This document shows positions 10,687 to 57,995 of a stretch of 64,000 bases of DNA, in pieces. The notes beneath the pieces were generated by a model that made no database searches, was not told where the DNA came from, and was given only the letters and a program-made list of their open reading frames with translations. Within the stretch, counting starts at the first letter, position 1, and every line of letters begins with the position of its first letter. The translations under genes were made by a program, and so were the position numbers. This DNA is from an uncultured Solibacteraceae bacterium. GTDB lineage: Bacteria > Acidobacteriota > Terriglobia > Bryobacterales > Bryobacteraceae. The DNA is taken from NCBI GenBank assembly GCA_963792055.1, contig CAWBUV010000017.1:252283-316282 (forward strand), in the 5' to 3' direction.

Positions 10687-10881
10687 AGGCCGGATTGCAA
10701 TCGTATCATTCTTCAGACCTATCCTGGATTGATACGTCTGTGTGCCGAGGTAAACGCGGTTGTATCAGGCTAACACCCCGGTTGTCGGCAACCCGGACGT
10801 TGAACGTCCGGGTACAGGTCACTTCCCAGTCATGGTGCGTCACCCGTCCGGAAAGTGATACGATGCCTGAATCCATTCTTC

Positions 10882-13452: not shown

Positions 13453-13611
13453 GCCCGCAATTGGTGCATGTGGTGATGGCCTTTGAGCTCTTCGAAAAGA
13501 TTCGCGGCGCCAAGCGTTGCCGCCAAGGGCGGGAGTCCCGCGTTTGGACTCCACTTGGACTCCAGAATGCCGCATTCAGACGGACTACCGTCCGTAAGTC
13601 TTAGAGGAATT

Positions 13612-13689
13612 TGGTCGGGCTGCCGAGATTTGAACTCGGGACCTCTTGCACCCCAAGCAAGCGCGCTAGCCAGGCTGCGCCACAGCCCG
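13612..13689 (-). tRNA. tRNA-Pro (anticodon GGG), CCA encoded
   Basis: Reverse complement CGGGCTGTGGCGCAGCCTGGCTAGCGCGCTTGCTTGGGGTGCAAGAGGTCCCGAGTTCAAATCTCGGCAGCCCGACCA folds by hand into a cloverleaf. Acceptor stem is 7 bp and D stem is GCGC/GCGC. Anticodon stem is CTTGC/GCAAG with loop TTGGGGT. T stem is CCGAG/CTCGG with loop TTCAAAT. Confidence 0.9.
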
Positions 13690-21079: not shown

Positions 21080-24000
21080 ATGGGCATCAATATCGGTCTG
21101 GACATCGGGGCCATCAGCCTCAAACTCGCCGCATTGGGTAAACCGGCGGACCGGGCGACACTGGAATCGGTGTGCGCGGCGCATCCCGAGTTCCGGCTGA
21201 TCGCGCTGGACGACCGTCCGTTACTGCTCTCCGATTACCGCCGGATCTCGGGCAGCCCGATCCAATCCACCTACGATTTGTTGCGCGAACTCTACGAAGT
21301 CATTCCAGAAGACCGCGTGGAAGGCATGCGGGTGACGGGAAGCGGCAGCCGGACCATCGCCAAGGTGCTGGGACTGTTCTTCGAGAACGAGTTCAAGGCC
21401 ATCGCCCGCATGATCGGCACATGGTATCCCGGAGGCGCGCACAGTATTCGAACTGGGCGGCGAGAGTTCCAAGTACATCCGTCTGGAGAACGGCGGAATC
21501 CAGGACTACGACCGCTCGGGGGAATGCGCGGCGGGCACGGGATCGTTCCTGGACCAGCAGGCGCTGCGCATGCAGTACTCGGTGGAAGAGGTGGGCGAAC
21601 TGGTGTGCGGCGCGGGATGCGCGGCGCGGATTGCGGGGCGATGCAGCGTGTTCGCCAAGAGCGACATGATCCACGCGCAGCAGAAGGGCTACTCGCCGGC
21701 CGAGATTCTGCGCGGGCTGTGTGACGCGGTGGCGCGCAATTTCAAGAGTTCGGTGGTGAAGGGCCGGCCGGTGGAGGCGCCCGTGGCGCTGATCGGCGCG
21801 GTGTCGCAGAATGCCGGCGTGGTGCGGGCGTTGCGCGAGGCATTCTCATTGAGCGCGGAACAGCTCTTCGTTCCGGCGGAATACGCCTGGTGCGGCGCTA
21901 TCGGCACGGCGATTCTGGAGGCCGGAGGAGCAGCGCAAACGTTCCATTCTGGACGTGCACCGCTTGCGCCAGCACGATGTGGAAGAGAGCTTCCAGGACA
22001 CCAAGCCGCTCTCCACGGAGAACGTGGTGCAGTTGCGCGACCGTGTGGCGGTCTACGATGCCGCCGCGGCGGCGCGGTCAATTCCGGCGTATCTGGGACT
22101 GGACATCGGGTCGGTATCGACGAACGTAGTAGTGATCGACGAGTTCGGTACGGTGATCCACGACGTGTACCTGCGCACCGCGGGCCGGCCGATCGAGGCG
22201 GTGCAGCAGGGGTTGGCCGAGGTGGAGCGGAGTTGGGGCAGCCGGATGAAGATCTGCGGCGTGGGGACCACGGGCAGCGGGCGCGAACTGATCGCGGAGT
22301 TCGTAGGCGCGGACGTGGTGAACGACGAAATCACGGCGCACAAGACCGGCGCCATACACATCAGCAGCACGTTGGGCGGCGAGCCGGTGGACACGATCTT
22401 CGAGATCGGCGGACAGGATTCGAAGTTCATCTCGATCGAGAACGGGGTAGTGGTGGATTTCGCGATGAACGAGGCGTGCGCGGCAGGCACGGGCTCGTTC
22501 CTGGAAGAGCAGGCGGAGAAACTCGGCATCAGCATCAAGGGAGAGTTCGCGCGGCTGGCGCTCAGCGCGCAAAGTCCGACCCGGCTGGGTGAGCGCTGTA
22601 CCGTCTTCATGGAGCGCGACGTCACGGGATGGATGCATAAGGGTGAGAGTGTGCCGCACCTGGTGGCGGGATTGGCGTACTCGATCGCGCTGAACTATCT
22701 GAATCGCGTGGTGCGCGGGCGCAAGATCGGCAAGGTGATCTACTTCCAGGGCGGGACGGCATACAACGACGCGGTGACGGCGGCGTTCGCCAGCCTGCTG
22801 GGCAAGAAGATCACGGTACCGCCGTACAACGGCGTGATGGGCGCGATCGGCATGGCGCTGATTGCGCGCCAGTGGCATGCGGCGACGCAGGGAGCGAGCC
22901 GCTTTCGCGGCTACGATCTGCACAAGCTGGAACTCACGACGCGTGACTTCGTATGCAAGGCGTGCAGCAACTTGTGCGACATGAAGGAATTCGTCATCGA
23001 AGGACAGAAAAGCTTCTGGGGCGATAAGTGCTCCGACAAGTTCCGCAAGCCTTCGAGCACGGGCCGCAAGCCGGTGATCGACGACCTGTTCGCCTACCGC
23101 GAGGCGCTATTGGAGGCGCTGCCCGCAGCAGCCGGCGGGCAGATTCAAGATCGGCCTGCCGCGCGCGATGTCGATGCTGGACCGGCTGCCTTTCTGGAAG
23201 CGCTATTTCGCGGAACTGGGCATGGAGACGGTCCTCTCGCCGGTGACCGATCCGCGGATTTCGGCTGGCGGGATCGAACTCTCGGTGGCCGAGCCGTGCT
23301 ATCCGGTGCAGGTGGCGCACGGGCATGTGCAGGCGCTGACGACCGCGGGCGTGGATTACGTGTGGCTGCCGGTGATGGCGGACGCGGAGGCGGGCGAGGA
23401 TGGCTGCGCGTCGCACTATTGCCCCTGGAACCAGACGCTGCCGTGGGTATTGAAATCCGCGCCGGGGCTGGAGGCGCACGCACAGAGTTCCTGACGCCCA
23501 CGCTGCATTTCCGGTTGGGAGCCGAGCAGATCAAGAAGGCGCTGGCCGAAACGATGCGGCGGGTCGGCGTCACGCGCCGAGCAAGCGACCGCGCGGTGGA
23601 TGCCGCCTATACGGAGCAGCGCGGATTCCAGGAGCGGCTGATCGAGGCCGGGCGGAAGGCGTTGGCGGCGCTGGAAAAGAGCGGCGAACCGGGGATCGTA
23701 CTGGCGGGCCGCGGATACAACATGTACGATCGCGGCGTGAATTGCGACATCCCACGCAAACTGCGCCATCGCTACGGCGCCAACGTGATCCCGCTGGATT
23801 TCCTGGTGACCGGAAACGAGCCGCTCTCCGAGTTGCACGCCAACATGTTCTGGATCTCCGGCCGCAAGATTCTGGAGGCTGCGCGCATCGCATCGGAGAG
23901 GCCCAACCTGCACATGATCTACCTGACCAACTTCAAGTGCGGGCCGGACAGCTACATCAAGCACTTCGCGCGGGAGGCCGCCGGCGCGCCGCTGCTGATT

Positions 24001-25389
24001 TTGCAATTTGACGGCCACGGCAACGATGCCGGGCTACATGACGCGCTGCGAAGCGTACCTCGACAGCAAAGGAATTCTGCGATGCTACCAATCTACGACG
24101 GAGCTGCCGCCGGGGCAGACCACAGAGACAGCACACCAAAGCACAGCGGCGACCACCCACTAAAGGGCAAGCGGATCTACATTCCGCCGATGGCGTACGG
24201 CAGCGCGCGCGCGTTCGCGAGCGCCTTCCGCGCGATCGGGCTGGAGGCGGAGCCGACGCCGCCCTCGGACCATCGGACGCGCGAATTGGGCGCGCGTTAC
24301 ACCTCGGGCGACGAATGCTATCCGGCGAAAGTGACGGTGGGCGACTTCATGAAAGTGGTGGAGAACCCGGGCCGATAGACAACCGGAAAATCGCGCTGTT
24401 CATGCCGACGGCACAGGGTCCGTGCCGCTTCGGACAATATGCGCCGTACCTGCGGCAGATTCTGGATGCCAACGGATACGGCGAAGTCGAGATACTCTCC
24501 CCCACCAGCCAGAACGCGTACGATGGCCTCGGCAGCTCTGGCCGGCGCCTTCGTGCGCACCGGCTGGCGCGCGCTGCTGGCGGCCGATCTGTTGCAGAAG
24601 CTGCTGCTGATGTGGCGTCCCTACGAAGAGCGGCGCGGCGACAGCGAGCAGACATATGAAGATTCCCTGGCCGACCTGTGCCAAACGCTGGAAGCAGACG
24701 GCGGTCGAGCCTGGCATCCAACTGCGAGGCGCTGCGCGATTGCATGGTGCGCGTGCCGCGACCGTTTCCGCAGGCTGGGAAGCGCGGCGCGACCGGCGCA
24801 GCCGCTGATCGGGATCGTGGGCGAGATCTTCTGCCGCCTGAATACGTTCAGCAACGACAATCTGGTGGCGGCGCTGGAACAGTACGGCGCCGAGGCGTGG
24901 TTGAGCGACATCGTCGAGTGGATCTGGTACACCAATTCGGAGCACTTCCGCAAGTTGAAGCTGGAAGGGCGTCTGTGGACGTTGGAAGCTCTCGGCGCCT
25001 GGGTGCGCAAGCGGGTGCAGAAGCACGACGAGCATGTGCTGGTGGAGCCGTTCCGCGACGATTTCGCGGGCCGTGAGGAGCCGGATATCTACGAAGTGTT
25101 GGAATGCGCGCGCCCTTATCTGCCGCGGGAGGGCGCATTCGGCGAGATGGTGCTGAACGTCGGCAAGGTGGTGTACCTGGCCAAGAAGGGCGCCGCGGGG
25201 ATCATCGACATCAGCCCGTTCACGTGCATGAACGGAATCGTATGCGAGGCGATTTATCCGCGGATCAGCCGCGATCTGGGAGGTCTGCCGATCCGCAATT
25301 TCTACTTCGACGGCACGCAGTCGGACCTCGATCGGGATCTGGGCGTGTACATGGAGTTGGCGCGGACTTACCGCAAGAAAGTGGCGTAG
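21080..25389 (+). pseudogene. BcrAD/BadFG-type double ATPase ('CoA-substrate-specific enzyme activase') fused or coupled to two DUF2229/HAD-like modules; about 9 or more frame changes
   Basis: ATPase copy 1: 'MGINIGLDIGAISLKLA', '...GECAAGTGSFLDQQA', 'GRCSVFAKSDMIHAQQKG'. ATPase copy 2: 'YLGLDIGSVSTNVVVID', 'NEACAAGTGSFLEEQA', 'ERCTVFMERDVTGWMHKG'. DUF2229-like blocks follow: 'IGLPRAMSMLDRLPFWKRYFAELGMETVLS', 'NFKCGPDSYIKHFAREAAGAPLLILQFDGHGNDAG', 'FMPTAQGPCRFGQY', 'IIDISPFTCMNGIVCEAIYPRISRDLGGLPIRNFYFDG'. The pieces lie in ORFs 20963, 21570, 21955, 23168, 24315 and 24439 and in unlisted frames. Confidence 0.8.
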
Positions 25390-25402: not shown

Positions 25403-26615
25403 CTACGCGTGTTCCATGCGTGGGCCGGTTTTCATGACTTCTTCGAAGCAGCGGGCGACGTGCTCCCAGGAGAAATTGGCGTTCACCATTTCCCAGGCGG
25501 CGCGGGCTTGACGCGCGCGGAGCTCGCGGACTGGCGAGAAGTTCCAGGCAGTGGGAGGCGAAGTCTTGCGGGGTATCGGCGATGCCGGATGTCGTGCGGG
25601 GGATTGACGGAGAGGCCCTCGGCGCCGATGGTGGTGGAGACTACGGGGATTTGTGCGGCCATGGCTTCGTAGATTTTCAAGCGGGTGCCGCCGCCGATGC
25701 GCAAGGGCACGATGGAGACGGCGGAGTTCCAGAGGTAGGGACGGATGTCGGGGACCGTGCCGGTGACTTGGATGTCGGGGATCTTCGGCGGCGAGTTCGA
25801 GGATTTTCGGCGGAGGCGTGCGGCCGACGATGGCGAGGGTGGCCTGCGGGCGATGCTTGCGGATCAAGGGAAGGATTTCGCGGACGAAATAAAACTACGC
25901 CATCCACGTTGGGGAGCCAGTCCATGGAGCCGACGAAGACGAGATCGGCGGCAGCGGCAGGGGGAGGCGTTGGGGGGAGGAAGTAGTCGATGTTGACGCC
26001 GGTGGGGATCTCGGTGACGCGAGTGACGTCAAAGAGGCGGCGCATTTCGTCGGCATCGGTTTGGGAAACGGCGACGATGTGGCCGGAGGCGCGGCTGACG
26101 CGGCGCTCGTAGCGATACATGCGGTCTGCCTGCAGCTTGAAATAGGCGCGGCGCAGGGGGTCTGGGGCATGCTCGACGTGGCGGCGCCAGATCACGGTTT
26201 CGACGTTGTGCTGGAAAAAGATGGCGTGGGGTAGGTCGGGGAAGTAGCCGGTGGGGGCGAGGTGATCGACGACGGCGCACTCGAAGCGTTCTTTGCGGAT
26301 GAGGTCTCTGAGGAAGGCGCGCATGCCGGGCGGATTGAAGCGTTCGACGGCAACCGGGGTGGGAGAGAAAAGACCGCGGACGAGTTCGGCATAGAACGCC
26401 GGGCTGGTCTTGGAGGGAACGCGGTAGGGGAAAGGATAGGACTTGTGCGAATACTCGTGCGCGCGTGCGGGGCCCTCGGGTTGGGCTGGGTTGTCGATGG
26501 CCACGTAATGGATTTCGTGCCAGCGGTGGAGATGGCGCAGCATCTCCAGCGTGCGGATCTGTCCACCCTTGGTGGTGGGGTGCATGAAATTGGAGTTGAC
26601 CCAGAGGGTCTTCAT
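25403..26615 (-). pseudogene. GT4-family (GT-B) glycosyltransferase; frame interrupted at least 3 times in the C-terminal half
   Basis: The N-terminal half is intact in ORF 25677..26615 ('MKTLWVNSNFMHPTTKGGQIRTLEMLRHL...'). The C-terminal half is pieced from 25403..25867 ('ILPLIRKHRPQATLAIVGRTPP', '...SWEHVARCFEEVM') and 25483..25710 ('VPLRIGGGTRLKIYEAMAAQIPVVSTTIGAEGL'). ATGA overlap with the upstream AsnB-like gene. Confidence 0.75.
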
Positions 26616-28552
26616 ACGGTGGGACGGGCGGCGGCCATGACGCCATCCCAGCGCTCTTCACGTTTGCCGGTGAGGAACATGTCGCCCCATAACTGGAGAG
26701 TGAGCAGGCGCCAGATACGGTCGGTGGCGTCTTCGCGGCCGGACACCTGAAGGTGCAGCAGGTTATCGAGCGCCGCAGGGTCGATGTAGGAGGCGAGCAG
26801 TCCGTCTTTGGCGCGCATGATGCTGGAAGAGGCGCGTCGGCGCGGGGATCGCGCAGCCACTGGCGGAGCGGAGTGGGAAATCCCATCTTCTTGCGATAGA
26901 TGATCTCGTGAGGGACGAGGCCTTCGATGGCTTTCTTGACGATGTACTTGCCCTCGCCATTGCGCAGTTTCATGTGCTCGGGGACGCGGGTGGAGAACTC
27001 GACGAACTCGTGGTCCAGGAAGGGGACGCGGCTTTCGATACTGGTGGCCATGCTCATCTGGTCCTGCTTCATGAGGAGTTCGATCAGGTAGGTCTTCTGG
27101 TCGGCGAAGAGAAGACGCGGAAGGGCCGCGAGTCCGGGTTTGGAGTCCCAGTACTTGCGGAAGTTGGCGTAGGGAGAAGCGGCCGGCAGATTCTGGAACA
27201 AGCGTTCGCTGTTCGGCGGCGGAGAAGGCGGAGTAGAAGTTGTCGAGGTATAGGGATTCCAGGTCCTCGCCGCGGCCGACGAAGGTGTGCTGGAGTTTGC
27301 GGCGGAGGGTGGAAGAGAGAAGGGGCGTGGTCGCGACCTGGTTACGAATGGCGGTGCGGGCGGCGCGGGGCAGAAGGCGATAGAGGCGCAGCCAGCGCTC
27401 GATTCATGGCGTAAAAGCGGTATCGCGCATAACCGCCGAACATTTCGTCGCTGCCTTCGCCCGTAAGAACGACGGTGACATGTTGCCGCGCCAGTTTGGA
27501 AACGAAGTAGAGCGAGACACTGGAAGGCCAGGTGATGGGCTCGTCCTCATGCCAGATGAGACGCGGCAGAGCGTTAAAGAAGCCCTCCATGCCGACGACG
27601 ACTTCGGTGTGTTCCGTTCCGATGGCTTGGGAGACCTGGCGGGCGTAGGAGAGTTCACTGAATTCGGCCTCCTGATAGCCGACGGCGAAGGTCTTGACGG
27701 GGCCATCGAAGTTTCGCTTCATCAAAGCGGCGATGGCTGAGGAATCGACGCCGCCGGAGAGAAACATGCCGAGAGGAACATCGCTCATGAGGCGCATGCA
27801 AACGGTCTGTTCCAGGCGGTCGCGGCATTCGGCGATCCAGGATGCATCGCTTCGGGTCTCGGGCTGGGGATCCGGAATCTCCCAATATTGGCTGGATGCG
27901 GGGCTGTGGAGATGCGCGCGGAGAGATCGAGCGTGAGGTGATGCCCGGGCATCAGTTTACGAATGCCGCGGAAGAGGGTGCGATCTTCGCTCACGTAGCC
28001 GAAGGCGAGGTATTCCGGCAGGAGGGACTCTTCGAATTGGGGAGAGATGGAGGGGTGTTCGAGGAGCGCCTTGATTTCACTGGCGAAGGCGAAGGTGCGG
28101 CCATCCCAATAGTAGTAGAAGGGCTTCTTGCCTAGACGATCCCTGGCGCAGAACAGTTTGCGCGTGTTCTTATCCCAGATGGCAAAGGCGAACATGCCGC
28201 GCAGGCGCAGAACACAATCGGCGCCATATTGCTCGTACGAGTGGAGGATGGTCTCGGTATCGGAGCGGTTGGTGTAGCGGTGTCCGGCCTGCTCCAGGGC
28301 GGGGCGCAGGCTGGCGTGATTGAAGATTTCGCCGTTGAAAATGATGAAGTGGGAAGCGTCTTCATTGGCCATGGGCTGGTGGCCGCCGGAGACATCGATG
28401 ATGGCCAGACGGCGGAAGCCGAGGGACGCCCAGGGATCGCGGTAATAGCCGGAGTCATCGGGGCCGCGGTGGCGGATGGTGTCCGTCATACGCTCGATGA
28501 TCGAGGGAGAGTCGGACGGTTGAACAGTTACGAATCCTGCGATTCCACACAT
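26612..28552 (-). pseudogene. Asparagine synthase (glutamine-hydrolysing)-like amidotransferase; frame interrupted at least 4 times
   Basis: 'MCGIAGF...RGPDDSG' is the Ntn-amidotransferase N-terminus (27785..28552). The PP-loop 'MSDVPLGMFLSGGVDSSAI' is in 27342..27797. 'LFADQKTYLIELLMKQDQMSMATSIESRVPFLDHEFVEF...KYIVKKA' is in 26029..27201. The C-terminus is in 26612..26860. Confidence 0.85.
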
Positions 28553-28809
28553 GAGCGAAGGGGACTATTCCTTACTCTACCATGCGGCACGACGGGAAGC
28601 CGGTTGGCAGCTAAGTTAGTGCGCGGGCCCGCGATTCATAGAGGTTTTGTCAGCGTCTACAAGATTTCATTGCTCGAACATTCATAAAATTATTCCAATT
28701 GATTTCAATTACTTGACTTTTCGGAGCAAGCGGATAAGCAAGGAGGCATAAGTTACTTTCGGCATAGAGGGGCTGGTTACCGAAACGACCGGCCAATTCA
28801 GTCAAAGAC

Positions 28810-31046
28810 ATGAAATTCAATAGAACCGCGCTGAGGTGGGTATGCGTGGCTGCGGCGATGAGCGGCGCGGCCCGCGGACAGACGCAGATCGACCTGCGTA
28901 CCCAAGGAAAGAGCATCGATTTTTCGTCGGCTGCACGGACGCGGCCATCCAAGACCGGAACGTTGGTACCGGCAGCCTGTACGATCGGAGAGACGTTCGT
29001 AAAAACCGATGCGGCGGCCGGAAAGAATCTTTATGTTTGTACGGACGTGAACGTCTGGACCGTTCAAGGCGTCGAGGTGCCGGACCCGGCGGGCAAGGCG
29101 AACCAGGTGCTGAGCAATGACGGCAGTGGATTTGCGTGGCAGGCATTCGGTGGGGATGTGAGCGGACGACCAGGCGCGCTTACGGTGACGGGACTGGGCG
29201 GCCGGAAACTCGGTAGCCTGACACCGCTGGATGGACAGTTTCTCAAATGGAATGCGACCTCCCAACAGTGGGAGGCGACGACCCTGGCCGGCGTGATCAG
29301 CGTCTTCGGGCGGACGGGGGCAATCGTGGCACAAATGGGAGACTACACATTTGCTCAGATCGCGGGCAGCGTGGCGGTGGGACAGTTGCCCGGCGCAGGC
29401 GGCGACCTGAGCGGTACGTTGAGCGCAGCCACTGTGGCGGGCATACAAAGCCGGCCGGTAGCGAATACGGCTCCATCAGTGGGACAGGTATTGGTATGGA
29501 GTGGGTCACAGTGGGCGCCGCAGGCAGTTACAGGCGTAAGTGTGACGAGTATCTTCGGACGTACCGGGGCGGTAACCGCACAGACCGGAGATTACAGCTT
29601 CGCGCAGATCTCGGGCACGGTGGGGAGCGGCCAGTTGCCCGGAGCCGGCGGAGATCTGAGCGGGACGTTGACGTCGGCGACAGTGAGCAGACTACAGAAT
29701 CGGCCGATGTCGGCCACTACCTCCGAGCAGCGGCCAGGTGCTCGCGTGGGACGGTTCGCAGTGGACACCCCAAACCGTGACATCCGGAGGCGGCGGGGGC
29801 GGCGGCGCAAATTCGGTTGATAAGAGTATCAGCAACACGTACACTGCAGGCGCGAAACAGACCTTCGTGCCAAGCCTCGCGACCAGCGGCATCAACATCA
29901 CTCCCGGTACGCTGCCGACCAATCCGGCGGCGGGCGATATTTCTCTCGATTCGGGGGATGCGAACAAATTAAAGGTATACGACGGCGGGCAGTGGAATAC
30001 GCTGGTCACGACAAGTAACTACGTGGCGGCCTTCACGGCGCAGACCCTGGTGACTATCAACGGGACGACACACCGACTGGGGACGGCGAACATCAACACG
30101 GAGTGCTATGATGGCGCAAACCCATCCGCGCGCGTGGAACCCGATAAAATAGTTGTCGACCCAGTGACGTTCAACGTCAACATCTATTTTGCGAGCGCGC
30201 AGACGGGACGGTGCATGATCACGGGAACTGGCGGTGTCACATCCTCAGGTGCGAGTGGCGCGGGAATGGCATCGCAACTGGGGGATTTGGGGCTGGTCCT
30301 GAGCAGTCCCACCATGCTGACCGCGGGACTCAACTGCTCCATCGCAACCCCCTGCAATACACGGTTAGGCAATACGGTATATTCCATAACCAGCAGCAGC
30401 ACGATCACGCTTTCGTCCGGAAGCGGAACGTTGTATCTGTACGTCGATGCTTCGGGCGCGCTGGCGGCAGGGCACAATCTATCGTTGACCTGCTCCGGAG
30501 TATGTGGCGCAATTGGCAGCGTAACTGCGTTTCCGCCAGGATCGATTCCGCTCTTCACATGGACCGCGACGAACGGAATCTGGGACACCAACGGCGGCAG
30601 CGACAAGCGGGCATTTCTGAGCACGCGAAATTTGGGCAGCGGTGCGGGTATTGTGTCCCTGGACACTGGTACGCAAACGGTGGTGGCCGTGGATTCAGCA
30701 GTCGTGCCGACGTACCTGACGGCGGCGGCAGTATTGGATCTTCGCGAGTATCATGCCGGGGGCATGCACCGATTCTACGCTGAGCCTGCCGGGCGCGTCG
30801 GCCGGGGACTCGGTAGCGCCCGGGTGGCCGGCGGGCCTTGAGAATGGCTTGATCGGGATGATGCGGATCAGCGCGAATAACACAGTGTCGGTAAGAGTCT
30901 GTAACTTCTCCGGCGCTTCAGTGGATCCGGCGGCGGCAATGTTCCGTGCGACGGTTGTGAGGAGTTTCTACGATGAAGAGGGCGATTCTATTGGCAACGT
31001 TCGCAACGTTATGCGGGGCGCAGACCACCGTGAACGGCGGACGTGA
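28810..31046 (+). pseudogene. Secreted protein with tail-fibre-like tandem repeats; at least 2 frame changes, 3' end uncertain
   Basis: Signal peptide MKFNRTALRWVCVAAAMSGAARGQ. There are two ~83-aa repeats of the form 'FGRTGAV.AQ.GDY.FAQI.G...GDLSGTL..ATV...GQVL.W.GSQW.PQ.VT'. The product continues in ORF 29738..30841 and then 30753..31046. The in-frame stop at 31046 overlaps the next gene. An ATGA-type stop at 30974-30976 exists in another frame. Confidence 0.65.
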
Positions 31047-32169
31047 CTACAAGGGAACACTGAAGGCAAGCGGGAGCGTCTCGGCGGTCGACTTCAGCAA
31101 TGCGGGAGGAACTGCGCCCGTGAAGGCCGGCTCTTCCGTTTCGCGGCCGACAGCGTGTGCGCAGGGACAGATTTATTTTGCTACGGACGTTGCGGCCGGG
31201 CAGAACCTGTACTTCTGTACGGTGACGGGAGCACCTGGAGTGTGGACTCAAATGAGCGGTAGCGGGGCAACGGCGATGACGGCCGGGACCGGCGCACCGG
31301 CAGGCAATTGCTCTCCGCCGGCTTTGTACACCGATACGGACAATCAGGATCTGTGGTATTGCGGCGCAATGAATTCCTGGAAGCGTCCGGCGGGAGCCAC
31401 GACGGGCGGCAGCGCAACTACGGCCTATGTTTCCTCATTGCTCACTGGCCCGGACCTTACCAGGACGGTCAGCGGGGCGACCCACGGGTTCGCTACCACG
31501 GCCTTACAGGTTGCCGTCTACGATAATGCGTCGCCACGCAACGCCATCGATGTGAACTATGCCGTAAACCCTTCTACTTACGACGTAGTGATCACGTTTG
31601 CCAGCCCGCAGAGTAGTTACTATGTAACGATCAACGGTGGCGTGGGCTTACAGGGTGACAATGGTGATAGTGGGCAGACCGGCGGGGGTGCGCCGGGCGG
31701 CGGCAGCGGGCAGGTACAAGTCAACTCAGGTGGAACGTTTGCGGGACAGACTTCTATCTTTAGCGGCGGGACGTTGGTACAGCGGGCCGTAGAGTGTGCA
31801 TCCGGGACCACAAGTTATACTGCGTTGACAGCGGCAGCGTCGAGTCAGGAAGTTACAATCCAGACTGGTATCTCAGGGAACGTTCGTTGGGACCAGGTGA
31901 CGGTATCGGAAAGCACTCAGTTCGCAGGGACGACCGGGCTGACGGTGTCCATGGGCCGCCCAGGAACCAACAACCACGAAATGACGGGCGCCCAGGTACC
32001 GTTGATGGTATCGGGCGGCGATGCGAATTTCTGGACGGCGCGTCCGATTCCCCCGCAACTGACAGGAACTTATTCGATCGTGCTCAATTTTGCTGTCACC
32101 TCAGGCACTGTGAATACGGCCACGGCCGGGGCGGTCACTTGGGAAGTGTGCGGCTATTCGGTTCGTTAG
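30973..32169 (+). CDS. Secreted protein sharing N-terminal and central modules with 28810..31046
   Basis: Intact 398-aa ORF. GGAG lies 8 nt before the ATG. Signal peptide MKRAILLATFATLCGAQ. It shares the module '...DFS.A..T.P.K.G......C..G..(F/Y)..TD.AAG.NLY.CT' and a central module 'G(T/A)TH...T......(Y)D.A.P......' with the upstream gene. Gly-rich linker 'GDNGDSGQTGGGAPGGGSG'. Confidence 0.75.
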   Translation: MKRAILLATFATLCGAQTTVNGGRDYKGTLKASGSVSAVDFSNAGGTAPVKAGSSVSRPTACAQGQIYFATDVAAGQNLYFCTVTGAPGVWTQMSGSGATAMTAGTGAPAGNCSPPALYTDTDNQDLWYCGAMNSWKRPAGATTGGSATTAYVSSLLTGPDLTRTVSGATHGFATTALQVAVYDNASPRNAIDVNYAVNPSTYDVVITFASPQSSYYVTINGGVGLQGDNGDSGQTGGGAPGGGSGQVQVNSGGTFAGQTSIFSGGTLVQRAVECASGTTSYTALTAAASSQEVTIQTGISGNVRWDQVTVSESTQFAGTTGLTVSMGRPGTNNHEMTGAQVPLMVSGGDANFWTARPIPPQLTGTYSIVLNFAVTSGTVNTATAGAVTWEVCGYSVR

Positions 32170-32235
32170 CGGTGCCGTCAGGACGGACCAGCCGGCCGGC
32201 CTTCAGACAGTTCAAACACGTTCAGGATTGATTCA

Positions 32236-35200
32236 ATGAAATTAGCGACAATCGTTCTGACCGCATCGTTGGCATACGGTGCGGTCGGCAATTTGCAGGT
32301 GCGGGGGGTGACATCCACGCAGGCCGTTATTGCTTACACTGCGCCGGATACGAGCGCGTGTTCGGTAGAGGTAAGCGAGTCGCCATCTTACCGTCCACTG
32401 GCGCACGACGTCGATCCTGCGCTATTCACGGGCTCTAGCCTGGACAACAGGCCGGAAGCGACGGCAAGCGGACGGCAGCGCGTATTCGTGGTGGGGAAAA
32501 GGCGGGCCGAGAGGGGCGCCGATAACCGCTGGTATTCGCGGGCACTGCAGACATTCACGACTCACTATTTTCGAATTACCTGCGGCAGCAGCCAGGCTAC
32601 CGGGCGGTTTCTGACAGCTAACATCGCACTGGGGAATACTTACAATGAGGCGTTACCTGCAGATCCCGGCGTGAGTGCCCGGCCATACTTCAGTTCCACC
32701 GGATCTTACGCATGGCCGGAGTTTCAGAATTGGAACAATCAGGATCCGGCGGCGCGTTCGGAATCCGTGATCGATCCCCAGACGGGTATGCTGCTCAAGC
32801 GCCTTGCGCTGCCCCAGGATCAGCCGATCACTTATTTGCCCGGTGGAGGGGACCATTACTTTTCGTCGGTTATCGATCCGGACGCAGCATGGGGAACGGC
32901 CAGCCGCGATACTCACCGATGATGGCACGGTGGCATCTTTCAAGGGAACCCAATCGAACGCACTCTTTTTAAGAGACCAGAACTTCTGGCCGGCAGGTGG
33001 GACCAACTTGTGGGATTTGACGCTACCCACGGAGTATGTGACAGTTTCCCTGAAGGGTTGGTGCTCGGGAACCTGCGCCGGTGAAGACGCAAAGATACAG
33101 GCCTGCCTGACGATTAACGGCGTCACCTGCTGGCCCACCAATGCAACAGCCAAGTATCAGGAAACCACACTCCCAACTTCCCAGACGAATAACTTCCTCA
33201 CTTTGGGGAGTCCGGTTGCAATTCTGGAATCGTGGACGCCTGCTGGATTCAGCCGGCTGAATCGTGCAGACCTCTCCTTTCGAACCGGAATTGTGAATGT
33301 CGATGTGGATGGCGGCGTGACCTGGCAATCAGGCGGTTACCCGAACACCTACTTCAATCCGAATTGGACTACGGGTAGCAAGATCAACATCGCGGGTTCG
33401 GAATGCAAGATCGCACTGATGGGAGGATTGACCCGCTTGACGATCGATCCTTCATCCTGCTCGACGCCGCTTTCCCTACCGCTGACGGGGGCATCGTTCA
33501 CGGGATCCAATTTTGGATTTCTGGTGCGGAAGAAGACGGGGAGCACCGATCAGATCAACCTGAAATACGCGAAATACACTACAGGAAGTTCTCAGTACAT
33601 CGATTTTACGGCGAGCGGTTCGGCGAAATTATGCGGTGACACACTTACGCAGAACAGCGTCACCGGTGGCTTAGGATATCACTGTGTGGTCCCCAGTGGC
33701 TGGCCTCTGTTGTACTGGGTCGATCATACAACCGGCGATGCGACTTACCTCGGTCTGTTCTACAGGGCGGGGGCAAACGGCCCGGACGGCTTCTCGGGCG
33801 GCTTTTGCGACGGAGGTTCCACGATGGTAGGAACCACACCGACAAAGCCGGAGAACTATTACTGCGGTGCTACCGATAACGAGACGCCGGCGAAACCGAT
33901 CATTGTGTCATGTACGCTGACCACCACAAACCAGCCGGGAGATCAGGCCGTCTCGTGTACGAATCTTACACCGGGCACGAAGGGCAGAGACCTTGTGACA
34001 CTGATCGCGGAGTTCACTGCGAACGACGTACCGGCCTTCGACAGTACAACATATGGATGCGGGATTGTGGGACGTCAGGGCGGAAAGCTGATCCTGGGAT
34101 GCGGACGAAGTGTTCAGGATACCCTGGGATGGACGGTCGTCTTTGACCCGAACAAGGTGGATAGCGCGCCCGGATGCGTGGGAGGCGGCGCACCGGGTTG
34201 TGTGGTTGCGGCCGCATCGACGTGGGCTACAGCGCCGGCACGGTGGTGCGTCGCCCATACAAGATTCGTCTCCGGAAATACGGACACCCTGTGGATCGCA
34301 GGAAAATTCTTCGCTCCAAACTACCCGCCCCGGTTGGACGATGGGCCGTATACGGCGACGATCTTATCGGGAGCGTTGACGGCAACACCCGCGATCGCAG
34401 CGGGTACGGGCGCTTGTCCGGTTGGAAGCGCGGGTTGCACTCAGGTGACCGTAGACGGCGAACCTTGCGATTCGTCCCCGGCGGACGGTGAGGTGACAGG
34501 CCGGAACGCATGTCCGAAAAATCCTCTGTGGGTGTACCTGCAGGACTGCGAAGGTTGGAGACGTATTTACAATCGACGCAGAGTTCGTCGTGCTGGTGGC
34601 AAAGACCGGAAATGAGTGGACGCTACAACGTGGCTACGGTTTGAGTGCGCCGTCCGATCATAGTTCCCCGACGCTGTGGGCACATTGCATGGCGCGGGAT
34701 TTCTTCCATGGCGTCTCGAACTGGTCGTGGACCTGGGATACGGCAAGGGATCCGCACGGAGTCAATAGTGACGGAACCACGGTGCGCGTGGCTTGGGACT
34801 ACGATCACCCGGTTCCTCGCACGGATGTCACTCTCGGGGGAATGCCGAGCTACGACAGCAATTGCCAGTCCGGCGCATGCTATGCGGTACGGGCCGACGC
34901 CGGCTCCATGGGCGATCCGCCCAACCGGTATGTGTCGCTGGCGCCGTCATTTTCGGGAGCGTCGGGCACGGCGTCTTACATCGAGCGTGCGCAGGACCAT
35001 CCAAGCTGGCTGCAGGACAATGCAGCCCGGTCAGAGAGGCAGTGGTTCACAGACGGAAGGCCATTGGCGCCTCTGATGGACATCAGCGACGCGGCGATCT
35101 CTGTATCGGGACAGTTGTATCGAGTTACCTCGACTACCACGGACGGGGATAATCTCGGCCGCGTAGGCTACAACATTTACGTGGTGAAGACATCAGCGAC

Positions 35201-36398
35201 GACGCTGCTTGCCGGCAGGAAATTGCTCGGCGGCCAACCCCTGTCCGATCTGGAGCGACACCTACCTGCTGGACTCGATTGTGCAGCCGTGCACGATCAC
35301 GCTGCTGGGCGGGAGTGGGACGGTTTATGTTTCGAGAATCAGTTCGGGCGGCCTGGGAGTTACGTATACCAACGGCCTGACAATCAGCTACCGATACGTG
35401 CCCGCTTTCGGAAGGAGCATGGCTTTCCCGGGGGATCGGTACCGTTGTGGACGTGGAGCGCAAATGTCGGGTACTTGGGCGGCGAGCGGCGCGGACACTC
35501 GCGGTGGTTCGTCCGGCTATCTTGGCGTAATCAATCGCAAGATTCAGCCAACGTGGGCGTACTGCGGGATGCAGCCGTTGATCGACGCGAGTAGTGCAGC
35601 GATGGGAGACGTACTCAGCGACACGCCTGCGGATTCCTACAAATATTGCGTGGCGCGCAAACCGGGCGAGTGCCGGTCGGCCTCGCACCCGGGCGACATC
35701 TACGTGAACTGCCCGAATGAAGTGAAGCGCAACGGCGGTTCGTATGGATGCATGTGGTACAGCCAGAATCAGGATATACCGGTGGATATCTGCGTAGGCA
35801 ACATGAGCGCTTATCTGAACTCGATCGTGCAGATGGGATTTAAGAAGAACGATTTCACGGGAGCTTTGGGGAGAACGCTGACGAAGGGGTTGACGCGCTA
35901 CAAACTCATCGACGGGTACTGGCACGGCAAGACCCTGTCGGACGCATCGTGGCTCATGTTTCGCTCGATGTATACGAGCGGTGCGTGGACCGAAATCCTG
36001 CTGGGAAAATTACCCCCGTATCCCCCACGGATTCCGTAGTGCGCTGGACGTTTCAGCCAATCCCGGTGAAATTGACGCCTCCTTCGGGGCTGGCGGTGGA
36101 TAATGCCGTGATCGAGTTTGGATACGCGGAGAACGGCGAACCGGGACAGTTCTACTGCACCAGCCGCCAGGAGAAGTGCCTGGCTACCGCTGCTACTGTT
36201 CCGGCGGTGCCATTTCTGTTCCCATCCGATGCCGCAGACGGGATGGAGTCCGGTGTCGCCGGCATGCCGTGTGCAAACGGTTGTAGTATCGCAATCCCGG
36301 CGATTTCGCAACGAGTGCTGTATTACCGCGTAAGGTATCGCGATGCGTCGAACCGGACCGTCGCGACCGGCCAGATTGAAACGATCGCGGTACCGTAG
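32236..36398 (+). pseudogene. Giant (~1380 aa) secreted Cys-rich protein; at least 5 frame changes
   Basis: Signal peptide MKLATIVLTASLAYGA, then an FN3-like 'NLQVRGVTSTQAVIAYTAPDTSACSVEVSES'. The product continues through ORFs 32804..34615, 34590..35594, 35209..36039 and 35949..36398, with sensible joins such as '...LQD..VGDVFTIDAEFVVLVAKTGNEWTLQRGYG'. I count more than 45 Cys in the joined reading. No family recognised. Confidence 0.6.
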
Positions 36399-36418: not shown

Positions 36419-37177
36419 TTAGGGCAGCGCCTTTGCAATCGCAGCTTCGGCAACCGGCGTCAGCAACGCGTAACCTTTGTCGTTCGGGTGCAGGCCATCG
36501 CCCGAAAACCCCTGCTTGAGCATGCCGGTGTCATCGACCAGCGCGGCATAATAGTCGGCGAAGATAGCATGTCGCGGTAGCGGCATACTCTCGCATCCAG
36601 GCATTCAACTTCAGAATGTCAGAGGGTGGACGCTGCACCGTTTGCTTGCGCGCGGTATAGTCGCTGATCGGAGTCACCGAGCACAGAATCACCTTGATCC
36701 CGTGCGCCTGTGCCAATTCGGTGATGGCCTGAAGATTGTCTTCAATCATGGTGAGCGTGGACGGACCGGTGTTACCCGCGATATCGTTGGTGCCCGCATA
36801 GACCAGGAGCGCAGCCGGCTTCAGAGCAATCACATCCGGAAACATGCGCACCAGCATCTGCGGAGTGGTTTGACCACTGATTCCGCGATTCACATACGGC
36901 TTGCCGGGAAAGTACTGGGCCAGCTTCCAGCCGTCGGTAATTGAGTCGCCCAGGAATACGACGCGGCCTGGCTCCGGCGGCAGTTGCTTCAGTCTTTGGT
37001 TATCGGCGTAATAACGGCCCAATTGATTCCAGTCCTGCAACTGATCGGCAAGACCCTTGGCGGCTGCCGGCAGACAACAATTGGCCCGAGCCGGGGCGAA
37101 CTGATCGACCACTTGGCCAGAGGCGCCAGCAGCCAGCAGGAATGTTCCAGTAAGAATGAGAGAGTATTCATATTCAT
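36419..37177 (-). pseudogene. SGNH/GDSL hydrolase; 2 frame changes
   Basis: 'VVFLGDSITDGW' (block I Ser), 'NRGISGQTT' and 'VYAGTNDI' are in ORF 36531..37406. Block V 'GDGLHPNDKGYALL' is in ORF 36419..36604. The signal peptide start MNMNTLS (ATG 37177) is in a third frame. Confidence 0.75.
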
Positions 37178-37180
37178 AGC

Positions 37181-38394
37181 TTAGCCACGGATCCCGATGG
37201 GCGGCGTGGGCACACTGCGCCGCCGTTTGCGAATGCCGGCGAAATCGAAGACGGCCTGCGCGATCGGCGTTCCGATTACCTCGATGCGTTTGAGGTCGCG
37301 CGTACCGATTCCGACCTCTTCGGCCAGCTTCAGAGTACTGTCGCAACGCTCGAAGGGAGGTGTGCCACGGTCGGCCATCGGGTCGAAACCCATCAGCGCC
37401 ATGCACACCGCATCAGTGGTCACGGGATTCGTTCCGGCGACGATCACGCCTGGGGCAGCCGGCTGCAGGTCCTCGCGAATCCACGGGCCCTCGCCGCCCG
37501 TCATTGTCTTAACACCTTCCACAATCGCCAGATGAATGGGACGCGCGGAAATCAGGTCCACTACGGTGCGCGGCACGCGGTAAGTGTCTTGCCTGGGCGT
37601 GGTCGGGTCTTTTTCGGACGGCGCGCTTTTTGAGGGCTGACGATTGCCCGCGTGCACCATGGTCCGGCCGCCGTTCGGAATCACCGAAGGCTCATCGACA
37701 CCGGCTCCGGCGCCGTAGATGGTGGCGGGCGTCAGGCCGAAGCAATTCTTCATGGAAAGCGTGATTCCCGCCGTGGCGTGCTCCTTCATTTTGGCGAGAC
37801 TCACAAAGACGTCGCAATCTTCGTAGGAGTGATTCAGGTCGAATGCCGGATAGATATAGCCGCCATAGGGGCACTACCATGCGCGAATATTTCTTCGCGC
37901 GTCCCAGGTAGTTGGTATTTTCGAACTCCACGTTCTGCGCGGCGCCCAGAATATCGCGCGGCTCCCAATTGGCTCGCATCACGTATTCTTCCACCGGATC
38001 GGCGGTGGACCACGGACTTTCCAGAATGCGGATCCGGCGAGCGCCGGCTTTGCCCATGAGGTGAGCGACGGCGGCGATCACGTACGGGTTGGTGTAGTGC
38101 GTATCTTCGAGCGGAAGGTAGCCGATGCGATACGTGGGCGCGCCGGTCAGATTGATCTTCATGGCGACGGTCTTGCCCTTGACCAGCCGTCCCAATCCGC
38201 CCAATTGGTCGAACATGGTTTCGAGCGCAGGCAGCAGCTCGCTGAGGAGTTATACGTCTTGCACCGTGAGACGGCCACCGGAGCGGTGGGCGCCTGCGCG
38301 GCGCGCGCGAGCGGGCGCACCGGCCAGCCATGCGCCGGAGAGCGCGCCGGCGGTGCGTGGAAAGCCATTGCCTGCGAGTATGACGGCACTGCAT
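37181..38394 (-). pseudogene. DUF362-domain protein with twin-arginine-type leader; several frame changes
   Basis: GGAGG precedes ATG 38394 ('MQCRHTRRQWLS...'). Then 'PVAVSRCKTY' and 'ELLPALETMFDQLGGLGRLVKGKTVAMKINLTGAP' follow in ORF 37692..38216 and unlisted frames. 'FVSLAKMKEHATAGITLSMKNCFGLTP...' is in ORF 37181..37804. Confidence 0.7.
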
Positions 38395-42866: not shown

Positions 42867-43802
42867 ATGCTGGAAGTGACCGGATTGCATAAGCGTTACG
42901 GGGATCTGGTAGCCGTGGAGGAGGTCTCCTTCGTGGCCAGGCCTGGTGAAATGGTGGGCCTGCTCGGGCCGAACGGCGCCGGAAAGACCACCACCGTCTC
43001 GATGATCGCCGGGTTACTGGCGCCGGACCGCGGCGAGGTGCGGATCGAAGGCGGTGTCGTCCGCGGCGAGACCGATCCGGTAAAACTGCGCCTTGGACTG
43101 GTGCCGCAGGAAGTGGCGCTGCACGACGAACTTTCGGCACGCGAAAATCTGGCATTATTCGGCGCCATCTACAATCTGCGCGGCGCCCAACTTTCCGGCG
43201 CGATGGAGGCGGCATTCGAAGTGGCCGGGCTGGCCGACCGTGCGAAGGATCGGGTAAGTACCTTCAGCGGCGGCATGAAGCGGCGGTTGAACCTGGCGGC
43301 AGCGCTGCTGCACGGACCACGAATTCTGCTGCTCGACGAGCCTACTGTTGGCGTCGATCCGCAGAGCCGCAATCAGATCTTCGCAAGCCTGGAGGAACTC
43401 AAGCGTCAAGGCAAGACGCTGGTCTACACCACTCACTACATGGAAGAGGCCGAGCGCCTCTGCGACCGCATTATCATCATCGACCACGGCAAGGTGATTG
43501 CCAACGACACGCTGGATGCGGTCCGCCGTATGGTGCCCAGCGTGAATGTGCTCGAAATCGGCGTGGAAAACCCGGGCCGCGACGGCTGGCTGGATGGCCT
43601 GCGTACCGTGGATGGCGTCTCGGCCGCGGTGTGGGACGGCAGCACGCTACGCGTGACCGTGCAGGATCTGCTGGAGAATTCGCCGCGGGTGCTGGTATGG
43701 CTGCGCGAACGGAGCTATCGCTGCAGCCACCTGACCAGCCAGCGCGCCGATCTGGAGACCGTATTCCTCTCGTTAACTGGAAGGAGGGTGCGCAACGCAT
43801 GA
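42867..43802 (+). CDS. ABC transporter ATP-binding protein (ABC-2/DrrA-like)
   Basis: Walker A 'GPNGAGKTT', signature 'FSGGMKRRL', Walker B 'ILLLDEPT'. First ATG is 42867 ([12 protein letters not shown]); the track starts at GTG 42828. Confidence 0.9.
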
Positions 43803-45094: not shown

Positions 45095-45101
45095 AAAATA
45101 C

Positions 45102-45205
45102 TATTCAACGCAGAGGCGCGGAGAACGCAAAGGAAGCGCAGAGAAAACTAGCTCTTATGTCGTCTCTGCGTTTCCTCTGCGCTCTTGGCGTCTCTGCGTT
45201 GAATA
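45102..45205. repeat. Large imperfect palindrome (REP-like element / bidirectional terminator candidate)
   Basis: 47-nt arms TATTCAACGCAGAGGCGCGGAGAACGCAAAGGAAGCGCAGAGAAAAC and the reverse complement of GTCGTCTCTGCGTTTCCTCTGCGCTCTTGGCGTCTCTGCGTTGAATA match at 39 of 47 positions (hand alignment). Spacer is 10 nt. The arms contain reiterated CGCAGAG. It lies between convergent genes. Confidence 0.75.
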
Positions 45206-45246
45206 CTCAGCCGCGGCTTATCAAGTCCACCGTCGTTGAGGTGGAC

Positions 45247-54961: not shown

Positions 54962-54962
54962 T

Positions 54963-55328: not shown

Positions 55329-55356
55329 CGGCGCCGGCCCGATCTTCGACGGCGCC

Positions 55357-57887: not shown

Positions 57888-57995
57888 GAGTGACGGTCGC
57901 AAATGCCGTTCGCAATGCGCGAAATGCGATAGTTTTCAGTTTAACGCACGTGGACTCCACGGCGCTCATCCACCTGATACCATGTGCATCAAACC

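Follow-up and report, generated by a model that had tools for sequence, protein, structure and literature searches.

A three-gene cassette for predicted exported proteins related to phage fibers, shared by Bryobacterales chromosomes and soil phages

Acidobacteriota are among the most abundant soil bacteria, and to our knowledge their envelope biology is almost unstudied. We analyzed a 64,000-nucleotide stretch of a contig from an uncultured Solibacteraceae bacterium (CAWBUV010000017.1, positions 252,283 to 316,282; referred to here as the window), in which three consecutive plus-strand genes occupy positions 28810 to 36398. Gene 1 (28810..30972) encodes a modular fiber protein of 719 amino acids (aa) after correction of its reading frame; gene 2 (30973..32169) encodes a mosaic fiber protein of 398 aa that is intact in the window and 100% identical to the protein P0001; and gene 3 (32236..36398) encodes a giant exported protein of 1385 aa, with 40 Cys residues, after correction of seven single-base indels. 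The three genes probably form one operon. The divergent intergenic region (28553..28809) between an amidotransferase gene on the minus strand and gene 1 on the plus strand is the presumed promoter site; a scan of the region for promoter and terminator consensus sequences performed no better than shuffled sequences and was uninformative. A sequence-only reading of the window had proposed a cluster of secreted, module-sharing proteins that would have a cell-surface or matrix role. Here we describe the cluster as a cassette that recurs in Bryobacterales chromosomes and has homologs in soil phages.

The sequence-only reading quoted the three N-terminal sequences correctly: they occur on the plus strand at 28810, 30973, and 32236, and the genes are codirectional as stated, but genes 1 and 3 are broken by indels in the raw window, through which the earlier reading had passed. 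Only gene 2 (30973-32169) is an uninterrupted open reading frame (ORF) there; raw gene 1 spans three reading frames, and raw gene 3 contains five frame changes. The indels were mapped by aligning 21 kb of the window to L001, an intact syntenic locus of a related metagenome-assembled genome (MAG; 86% DNA identity). Gene 1 gained single bases near 29720 and 30740 (+1) and lost one at 30970 (-1), the loss taking out the stop codon, and gene 3 has +1 insertions at 32904, 34547, 35216, 35386, 35418, and 35472 and a -1 deletion at 36024. Compared with L001, the window contains ~45 scattered single-base insertions and a few deletions at 20-40 kb, outside homopolymers, and these strike every gene (i.e., the BcrAD/DUF2229, GT4, AsnB, GDSL, and DUF362 genes as well as genes 1 and 3). 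Once the bases at 29720 and 30740 are removed and one base is restored at 30970, gene 1 ends in a TGA directly before the gene 2 ATG; gene 3 is restored by removing six bases and adding one at 36024. The corrected genes have zero internal stops, and their products align without gaps to the intact metagenomic proteins P0281 (gene 1; 99.0% identity) and P0140 (gene 3; 96.5% identity). Because the insertions hit every gene at 20-40 kb and editing restores near-identical full ORFs, we read the frameshifts in genes 1 and 3 as assembly errors, not pseudogenization. Frameshifting indels are also listed for window positions 43631-45966, 53807-55631, and 56021-57902, and long ORFs are intact at 3098-6619, 8020-10686, 10855-13452, and 51171-53810, so that the error density is uneven along the window. 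A long-read metagenome assembly may lie behind this, a guess prompted by the titles of the related MAGs (MFD isolates).

Behind its signal peptide, gene 1 is made up of an N-terminal "knob" module (28879..29070, with the motifs ..LP..C..GE.F.KTDA..GKNLY.CT..N.W), tail-fiber-like repeats (29149..29783), an Ig-like middle module (30020..30250), an "NCS" module (30287..30640, ..GLNCS.ATPCN.RLGN.VY....S.ITL.SGSGT.YLY..), and a C-terminal beta-sandwich domain (30741..30968); these features and all others of the three genes lie on the plus strand. The repeats reported in the sequence-only reading consist of two full 83-aa units (29149-29397 and 29398-29646) and a partial third, which are 54-57% identical (tblastn E ~1e-30) and carry FGRTGA[IV]..Q.GDY.FAQI. 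Each unit joins a mini-domain, GGDLSGT...GQVL.W.G.QW.P, to the stretch FGRTGAV.AQ.GDY.FAQI. In a PHROG profile search, gene 1 was the only one of the three proteins with matches, namely, phrog_16348 (2e-11) and phrog_9627 (7e-8), both PHROGs of unknown function, and phrog_9729, annotated as "tail fiber protein" (7e-4). An AlphaFold2 model of the gene 1 ortholog P0281 (707 aa; mean predicted local distance difference test score [pLDDT], 69.5; predicted template modeling score [pTM], 0.28) contains confident small beta domains at residues 27-148, 195-231, 269-312, 349-461, 478-591, and 622-707 with low-confidence linkers between them, and therein shows the elongated build of small beta-rich domains and shaft repeats that characterizes phage fibers. 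The pLDDT is 80-89 for the Ig-like module, 84-96 for the NCS module, and 82-94 for the C-terminal domain. The GQVL.W mini-domains are modeled with moderate to good confidence (block pLDDT ~60-85), and the FGRTGAV..GDY stretches have a pLDDT of <50, as would be expected if they formed an inter-chain shaft.

Structural searches with this model (Foldseek) pointed in the same direction as the PHROG matches, in keeping with a tail-fiber-like nature of gene 1. The best matches in the PDB are all phage or pyocin fibers or spikes, including lambda gpJ, the Klebsiella phage depolymerases 6tku and KP32gp38, the R1 pyocin fiber, and the Pam1 tailspike, with an endosialidase also among them; the best local probabilities are 0.84-0.96, with 0.96 for the R1 pyocin fiber. 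Among the predicted viral structures in BFVD, 57 matched the model at an E value of <=1e-3. Whole-chain matches there include proteins annotated as lambda Stf repeat, Mtd-N, collagen repeat, and tail fiber, and one ~84-aa domain, probably the C-terminal beta-sandwich, superposes at 0.9-2 A on many Caudovirales proteins. The same C-terminal domain is 35% identical to a small protein of podovirus MW202554. In KP32gp38, a C-terminal tandem of carbohydrate-binding and lectin-like domains mediates capsule binding and trimerization (PMC13082707). The NCS and C-terminal domains of gene 1 may plausibly be likened to that tandem, purely as an analogy. The Pfam family DUF6087 (PF19565) scored 18.8 bits against the window pieces of gene 1, below its cutoff of 27.1, and PTR (PF12789) was not reported for these pieces at an E value of <=1; precomputed matches to PF19565 or PF12789 exist for some homologs.

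Gene 2 is a mosaic of an N-module with the knob motifs (31021..31407), an Ig-like middle module (31420..31647), a short collagen-like Gly-X-Y or Gly-rich linker (31636..31707; ~5 triplets, GPQGPKGDKGDTGAAGG in L001), and a C-module (31708..32166); the first two are common to gene 1. Its first 145 residues share 83% identity with the N-terminus of ~690-aa proteins whose C-terminal parts are unrelated, and residues 246-398 share 83% identity with the C-terminus of exported ~251-aa proteins that make up a large family. The C-module also shares 65-68% identity with a 456-aa protein encoded on a myovirus-like contig (L017). The Pfam Collagen family (PF01391) is carried by the gene 2 homologs P0037 and P0052 and gave no match in the window gene, in which there are only ~5 Gly-X-Y triplets; the collagen-like stretch of the orthologs hints at trimers. 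In three Solibacter MAG loci (L026, L029, and L033), the parts of gene 2 are separate genes, with N-module proteins of 525-918 aa and C-module proteins of 266-348 aa, and an extra unannotated gene of 555-890 aa lies directly upstream of gene 3. Profile matches (hhalign) between the gene 2 C-module and Ig-like modules were discarded as artifacts, because the underlying alignment (A2) misplaces the middle modules of other proteins under the C-module columns.

The most conserved part of gene 3 is its Fn3-like N-terminal domain (32284..32625; motifs TQA..YTAPD, HDVDP.LF.GSN.D.R, and SRALQ; Foldseek Fn3 probability, 1.0). A model built for the family (P0212, 1166 aa, from a 73-sequence alignment) is rigid and all-beta, with a pLDDT of 91.9 and a pTM of 0.91. 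From its strand pattern and fold matches, we read a layout of the Fn3-like N-domain, beta-sandwiches, an extended series of four-stranded blades, and a C-terminal Ig-like beta-sandwich (36048..36395) with two conserved Cys pairs. Whole-chain Foldseek matches are to the ROS1 and Sevenless ectodomains, assorted propellers, and Fn3 proteins, which are architectural analogs only, with query-normalized template modeling (TM) scores of at most 0.15. Many Asp, Glu, and His residues are invariant, and searches for Asp-box and other motifs in gene 3 returned nothing. A loop of gene 3 contains an inserted 110-aa NCS-type module (aa 978-1087; 35169..35502, mapped via the L001 DNA alignment) that is homologous to the NCS module of gene 1 and is confined to the Solibacter clade. 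In homologs at <=~50% identity, the query segments on either side of it (residues 1-977 and 1088-1385) are matched by directly adjoining stretches of the subject, and the Solibacter clade has therefore gained the module secondarily. The family is large; a HMMER search with P0212 against 1.84 billion cluster representatives retrieved 1,467 clusters (50% identity) at an E value of <=1e-3 and 660 at <=1e-30, and some homologs are fused to LamG, beta-helix, He_PIG, or PG_binding_1 domains.

The module sharing described from the sequence alone was detected by BLASTP, and profile-profile comparison with hhalign confirmed three shared modules: the knob module at the N-termini of genes 1 and 2 (probability, 98.7; E = 4e-16), their Ig-like middle module (probability, 98.0), and the NCS module of gene 1 and the gene 3 insertion (probability, 99.3; E = 1e-20). 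That reading had recognized no characterized family for any of the three proteins, and they indeed belong to no described family: nothing above threshold was found in Pfam, NCBIfam, or PADLOC, and nothing significant was found in PDB sequence searches with the single proteins or with a 73-sequence profile. Neither a YadA-type anchor nor another known anchoring domain was matched in Pfam or NCBIfam, the name "trimeric autotransporter adhesin" being an automatic Joint Genome Institute (JGI) label on just two homologs. No beta-propeller glycoside hydrolase or polysaccharide lyase was matched in Pfam or in PDB sequences, and the Foldseek propeller matches are generic, with low TM-scores. A literature search returned nothing relevant to the cassette, the KP32gp38 paper being useful as an analogy.

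Each of the three proteins has a K/R n-region, a hydrophobic core, and a small-x-small site, consistent with the signal peptides that had been claimed. The predicted signal peptides are MKFNRTALRWVCVAAAMSGAARG in gene 1 (28810..28878) and MKRAILLATFATLCGA in gene 2 (30973..31020), each followed by Gln after the predicted cleavage site, and MKLATIVLTASLAYGA in gene 3 (32236..32283). Signal-peptide-like N-termini are likewise present in 51 of the 72 gene 3 family members with M starts and in viral homologs. Of the 40 Cys residues in gene 3, seven pairs are kept across the family (42/116, 290/298, 466/483, 1136/1144, 1170/1184, 1306/1313, and 1344/1348), as expected for a protein that folds outside the cytoplasm. 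The signal peptides and these pairs uphold the argument for export rather than cytoplasmic virion assembly; phage fibers, by comparison, are cytoplasmic proteins lacking an export signal, a trait absent from all three. Two particular routes were considered and rejected. In genes 1 and 2, the Cys is preceded (-1) by a residue other than A, G, or S, which does not fit the lipobox of a lipoprotein signal, and the C-termini of the three proteins (...ATVVRSF, ...VCGYSVR, and ...IETIAVP) lack the motif of PEP-CTERM/XrtA cargo.

A scan of GTDB species representatives yielded 30 loci, mostly in Solibacter, Bryobacterales, and Bryobacteraceae genomes, together with two from Verrucomicrobiia and one from Acidiferrales. 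In ~22 of these 30 loci, a gene-1-like fiber gene lies directly upstream of the gene 3 homolog on the same strand, usually accompanied by a gene resembling the gene 2 N-module, and this fiber-then-giant order holds even where the gene 3 homologs are only 28-30% identical. The number of fiber genes per locus varies from one to four. The cluster is thus one conserved unit of fiber gene(s) plus giant protein, not a set of three equivalent module-sharing proteins. Pairwise ratios of nonsynonymous to synonymous substitution rates (dN/dS) are 0.07-0.16 for all three genes (0.067 for gene 2 versus L001), indicating purifying selection at the sequence level.

The sequence-only reading had placed the cluster directly downstream of an extracellular polysaccharide (EPS)-type pair encoding a family 4 glycosyltransferase (GT4; 25403-26615) and an AsnB-type amidotransferase (~26612-28552). 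This pair (25403..28552), both members of which are frameshifted in the window, in fact lies on the minus strand and is transcribed divergently from gene 1. On the other side, a GDSL/SGNH esterase gene (~36419-37177) and a DUF362 protein gene (~37181-38394), also on the minus strand (36419..38394), are convergent with gene 3. Both flanks are kept in the loci L001 and L003. The best NCBIfam matches of the GT4 and the amidotransferase, TIGR03087 (222 bits; cutoff, 317) and TIGR03108 (573 bits; cutoff, 817), are below the curated cutoffs, so these proteins are related to the XrtA/PEP-CTERM set without being members of it. We surveyed the flanks of the cassette more widely by running Pfam on 119 ORFs located within 3 ORFs on either side at 28 genome loci. 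Sugar-nucleotide and polysaccharide functions dominated this census. The counts were 10 for Epimerase, 6 each for GDP_Man_Dehyd and RmlD, 5 each for Asn_synthase and Polysacc_synt_2, 4 for GT2, 3 for PMT_2, and 7 for methyltransferases, and none of the 25 most frequent Pfam families in this census was a phage family. Taken together, the conserved order, the flank census, and the dN/dS values identify the cassette as an old, functional chromosomal unit that tends to lie in glycan loci.

The reported absence of phage genes nearby holds for the annotated parts of the 64-kb window, and no sheath, tube or tape-measure, baseplate, or lysis genes were found near the cluster; with L001, L003, and the flank census, this agrees with a chromosomal, non-prophage setting beside polysaccharide-type genes. 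Rfam and tRNA scans detected only a tRNA-Pro, 15 kb away, and hence no island boundary signal. Other genes in the window encode a PSD/PSCyt protein, a PAS histidine kinase, two Ser/Thr kinases, an outer-membrane barrel, an ABC-2 transporter, and an Hsp90-like protein. The Ser/Thr kinases are divergent paralogs with PD40 beta-propeller repeats (8020-10686, minus strand; 10855-13452, plus strand; within 8020-13689), followed by the tRNA-Pro(GGG) at 13612-13689. The PSD/PSCyt protein (313-2649, minus strand) is of the Planctomycete type (DUF1592, DUF1588, DUF1585, DUF1587, and DUF1595) and has a weak cbb3-type cytochrome c match. Immediately past the GT4 gene are a gene for a large BcrAD_BadFG/DUF2229 protein (21955-25389, plus strand), related to 2-hydroxyacyl-CoA dehydratase activators, and a second DUF2229 gene; this arrangement is kept in L001 (L001:141-4435) and not in L003. 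In the contexts of P0193 and P0180, from more distant genomes, a conserved gene pair, NUDIX and LPG_synthase_TM, precedes the fiber and giant pair, which also has GT2 and PMT_2 (GT39/83-like) genes at its flanks and, at one locus, two pilin-like N_methyl genes. These neighbors hint at a link to periplasmic glycosylation or to type II secretion or pili.

Embedding of the cluster in a prophage in related genomes had been set down as one contrary outcome, and the evidence on this point is divided: close relatives keep the cluster chromosomal, whereas contigs of uncultivated soil phages carry homologs of genes 1, 2, and 3 with their order preserved. What links the cluster to phages is therefore a homology of the whole cassette and not of one repeat only. 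Among the viral contigs of IMG/VR, scans showed that 5 carry relatives of gene 1, including its NCS module, and 14 carry full-length relatives of gene 3. A 662-aa gene-1-like protein precedes a gene-3-like protein in L007, a 1045-aa protein precedes one of 1330 aa in L010/L014, a 914-aa protein precedes one of 1259 aa in L018, and in L017 the 456-aa protein with the gene 2 C-module precedes a 1661-aa gene-3-like protein. The cluster is not part of a phage tail-gene module in the window, L001, or L003, whereas the viral homologs are, adjoining terminase, portal, head, neck, sheath, or spike genes. The gene orders are as follows: (i) L017, head protease, virion proteins, Neck1, cassette, tail sheath, and tape measure; (ii) L022, terminase, portal, major head protein, cassette, and tailspike; (iii) L015, tail proteins, cassette, tailspike, terminase, and portal; (iv) L013, head-morphogenesis or portal-like protein, cassette, QueE, and terminase; and (v) L007, terminase and cassette. 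By similarity, viral and MAG copies interleave; the one in L013, for instance, shares 47% identity, along its entire length, with a copy from a Verrucomicrobiia MAG. A tblastn search of 50,697 GenBank phages gave no match for genes 2 and 3 and two weak matches for gene 1.

The viral gene-3-like proteins retain the family Cys pairs. In the same five contigs (L007, L013, L015, L017, and L022), signal-peptide-like N-termini were found only on fiber-, spike-, and gene-3-like proteins, some of which match PHROGs annotated as "tail spike" and "tail protein," and never, by the heuristic used, on terminase, portal, head, sheath, neck, or tape-measure proteins; the sole exception was a terminase fragment, an artifact of an internal Met. 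Large neighbors in the viral contigs carry BACON, Kelch, beta-helix, LamG, or He_PIG domains, and in the MAG locus L026 a further protein of the cassette gives a weak LamG-like match that falls short of the Pfam threshold. BACON, Kelch, beta-helix, and He_PIG domains are typical of carbohydrate-binding extracellular proteins. In L013, the terminase large-subunit gene is split (21413-22357 and 22786-23712, within L013:21413-23712) around an ORF at 22350-22844 that is HNH endonuclease-like by eye, and this may be a homing-endonuclease or intron-type interruption; the QueE-like gene (PHROG match) of this contig, together with an ORF that is QueD-like by eye, suggests 7-deazaguanine DNA modification.

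We favor, with moderate confidence, a reading in which the locus represents a resident cassette of the chromosome, domesticated or at least shared with phages, whose three products are envelope proteins exported by Sec that are related to phage receptor-binding proteins and bind or process a surface glycan. It draws on the export signals, the fold class, the conservation of the cassette, the selection acting on it, its glycan-locus context, and its homology to phage genes. The fibers would be exported, cleaved by signal peptidase, and then assembled into oligomers, probably trimers, a state we infer because gene 2 has a collagen-like Gly-X-Y stretch and the shaft segments cannot be placed in a monomer model. 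Their C-terminal beta-sandwich heads would bind the cell's own surface polysaccharide, by analogy with the lectin-like and carbohydrate-binding modules at the C-termini of phage depolymerase receptor-binding proteins. The giant protein would be the partner of the fibers, serving as a docking platform or a glycan-processing protein, and in the Solibacter clade it has acquired a copy of their NCS module. Fibers and giant protein may together decorate, remodel, or mask the surface glycan layer, and phages with the same cassette would treat the glycan of an infected or lysogenic cell likewise.

Several points weigh against this reading. The signal peptides were judged by a simple heuristic and by eye, and the three proteins could be periplasmic, since no outer-membrane route was identified. 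The PDB fold matches of gene 1 have E values of >=4.8e-3, none reaching 1e-3, with low whole-chain TM-scores; structure models are limited to genes 1 (P0281) and 3 (P0212), leaving the gene 2 C-module without one; and the gene 3 model gave neither a specific family by Foldseek nor a catalytic site. The flank census has no statistical background. In some genomes, the gene 3 homolog stands alone, for example, between ffh and relA, and the partnership of fiber and giant protein is therefore not obligatory. Finally, the oligomerization, glycan binding, surface location, fiber-giant partnership, and biological role are parts of the reading that we infer.

Four other explanations bear on the same observations. 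A cryptic prophage remnant, in which leftover tail-fiber genes have no cellular function and the frameshifts are real, would account for the homologous cassettes in phage genomes and for the 10 frameshifting indels in window genes 1 and 3. We consider it highly improbable: the indels are spread equally over neighboring non-phage genes, and their removal restores stop-free ORFs that are 96.5-99% identical to intact orthologs; dN/dS is 0.07-0.16; flanks and order persist in L001, in L003, and in many MAGs, even at identities as low as 28%; and no phage gene was seen in the annotated parts of the window or among the 25 top flank Pfam families at the 28 loci. The possibility that gene 3, and perhaps the fibers, form a set of EPS- or lipopolysaccharide-processing enzymes, i.e., a secreted glycanase or lyase trimming or releasing the polysaccharide made by the neighboring genes in the manner of PslG, AlgL, BcsZ, or phage depolymerase spikes, fits the glycan-locus context, the GDSL esterase gene adjoining gene 3, the many invariant Asp, Glu, and His residues of gene 3, a propeller-like fold that is common among glycoside hydrolases and lyases, and the capsule depolymerases and endosialidase among the best gene 1 matches. 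Such a role seems unlikely, although worth keeping in view, given that searches of Pfam, NCBIfam, and PDB sequences turned up no glycoside hydrolase, polysaccharide lyase, or carbohydrate esterase family, that Foldseek named no specific enzyme family (query-normalized TM-scores of at most 0.15), and that gene 3 lacks Asp-box motifs and an identified active site.

An anti-phage mask or decoy would be a set of exported proteins that shield the cell's own phage-receptor glycans or trap virions, with the phage copies serving for superinfection exclusion. This would make sense of proteins that are related to phage receptor-binding proteins and yet exported, that are encoded beside glycan genes of the kind that usually specify phage receptors, and whose modules are reshuffled between paralogs at 83% identity, as well as of the moron-like positions of the phage copies (the neck-sheath gap in L017 and the vicinity of glycosyltransferase genes in L013 and L022). 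It is nonetheless quite unlikely: no PADLOC match was found, the low dN/dS values show no diversifying selection at the whole-gene level, and the known exclusion proteins Llp and Cor are small lipoproteins, not fibers of 700-1400 aa. The idea that the fibers are adhesins or substrate-capture devices, binding external polysaccharides, such as plant or microbial polymers, or surfaces for attachment or foraging independently of the cell's own glycans, appears very unlikely. Although the fibrous, modular build with lectin-like heads suggested by the models, the LamG, BACON, or Kelch domains of related cassette proteins, and the JGI name "trimeric autotransporter adhesin" on some homologs would suit it, the proteins lack a YadA-type or other known anchoring domain, the recurrent neighbors are biosynthetic (sugar-nucleotide, glycosyltransferase, and PMT_2 genes) rather than catabolic or uptake genes, and foraging would hardly explain the same cassette in phage genomes.

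Beyond the resident glycan-binding or glycan-processing cassette that we favor, a broader proposal can be advanced only tentatively. The proteins might represent an undescribed class of Sec-exported, disulfide-bonded receptor-binding-type proteins common to Bryobacterales chromosomes and phages, with the phages either adding periplasm-matured fibers to their virions after lysis or employing giant exported fibers to mask or destroy their own receptor, and with the chromosomal cassette being a domesticated glycan coat or phage shield. The gene 3 family, with its ~1,470 clusters at 50% identity, and the fiber families, with hundreds of members, have no model in the libraries searched. If the favored reading is true, phage receptor-binding-type proteins have been taken over for a cell-surface function, an instance of domestication beyond that of tailocins. 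The phage copies that keep signal peptides and Cys pairs offer a lead into soil phage biology through their exported fiber and spike proteins, and the heads, the NCS module, and the giant protein are concrete targets for glycan-binding, structural, and phage-adsorption work.

Compared with known systems, the locus resembles XrtA/PEP-CTERM loci in that the neighboring GT4 and amidotransferase are nearest to TIGR03087 and TIGR03108, but both scores are below the cutoffs and the three proteins carry no PEP-CTERM motif. In the whole-chain Foldseek search, the gene 3 model scored best against the ectodomains of ROS1 and Sevenless (E = 1.7e-8 to 3.7e-6), which similarly combine Fn3 domains with a propeller in a large extracytoplasmic protein, but TM-scores of <0.1 and ~8% identity make this an architectural analogy, not homology. 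Bacillus BclA and Streptococcus Scl are collagen-like bacterial surface fibers. Like gene 2, they are exported and have a Gly-X-Y stretch followed by a globular C-terminal head, and PF01391 occurs in some gene 2 homologs; gene 2 differs in having only ~5-6 triplets, no Pfam match, and no LPXTG or exosporium-targeting motif. Llp of T5 and Cor of phi80 and N15 are small lipoproteins that block an outer-membrane receptor. They share with the cassette a place among the tail genes of phages, export signals, and an action (presumed for the cassette) on the envelope of the host, whereas the cassette encodes fibers of 400-1400 aa and a propeller-like protein and is also fixed in host chromosomes.

Tailocins (R- and F-type pyocins) are also phage-tail-derived proteins kept in the chromosome, and the R1 pyocin fiber is among the best matches of gene 1, but no sheath, tube, baseplate, or lysis genes were found near the cassette, for which Sec export is apparent rather than release by lysis. 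The closest resemblance in kind is to phage fibers and tailspikes (lambda Stf/gpJ, the R-type pyocin fiber, and the KP32gp38 type), with which the cassette shares small domains joined by linkers, shafts that cannot be placed in a monomer, a C-terminal beta-sandwich tandem, mosaic exchange of modules, and homologs beside phage structural genes, the fold and PHROG matches tending the same way. It departs from them in its Sec-type signal peptides, its conserved Cys pairs, its stable chromosomal locus without baseplate, tube, sheath, or head genes, the lack of a Pfam fiber family at threshold, and a representation among GenBank phages limited to the two weak gene 1 matches. What is new relative to the phage fiber and spike class and to tailocins is thus a set of related proteins with export signals and conserved cysteines, encoded without tail machinery in a chromosomal glycan locus.

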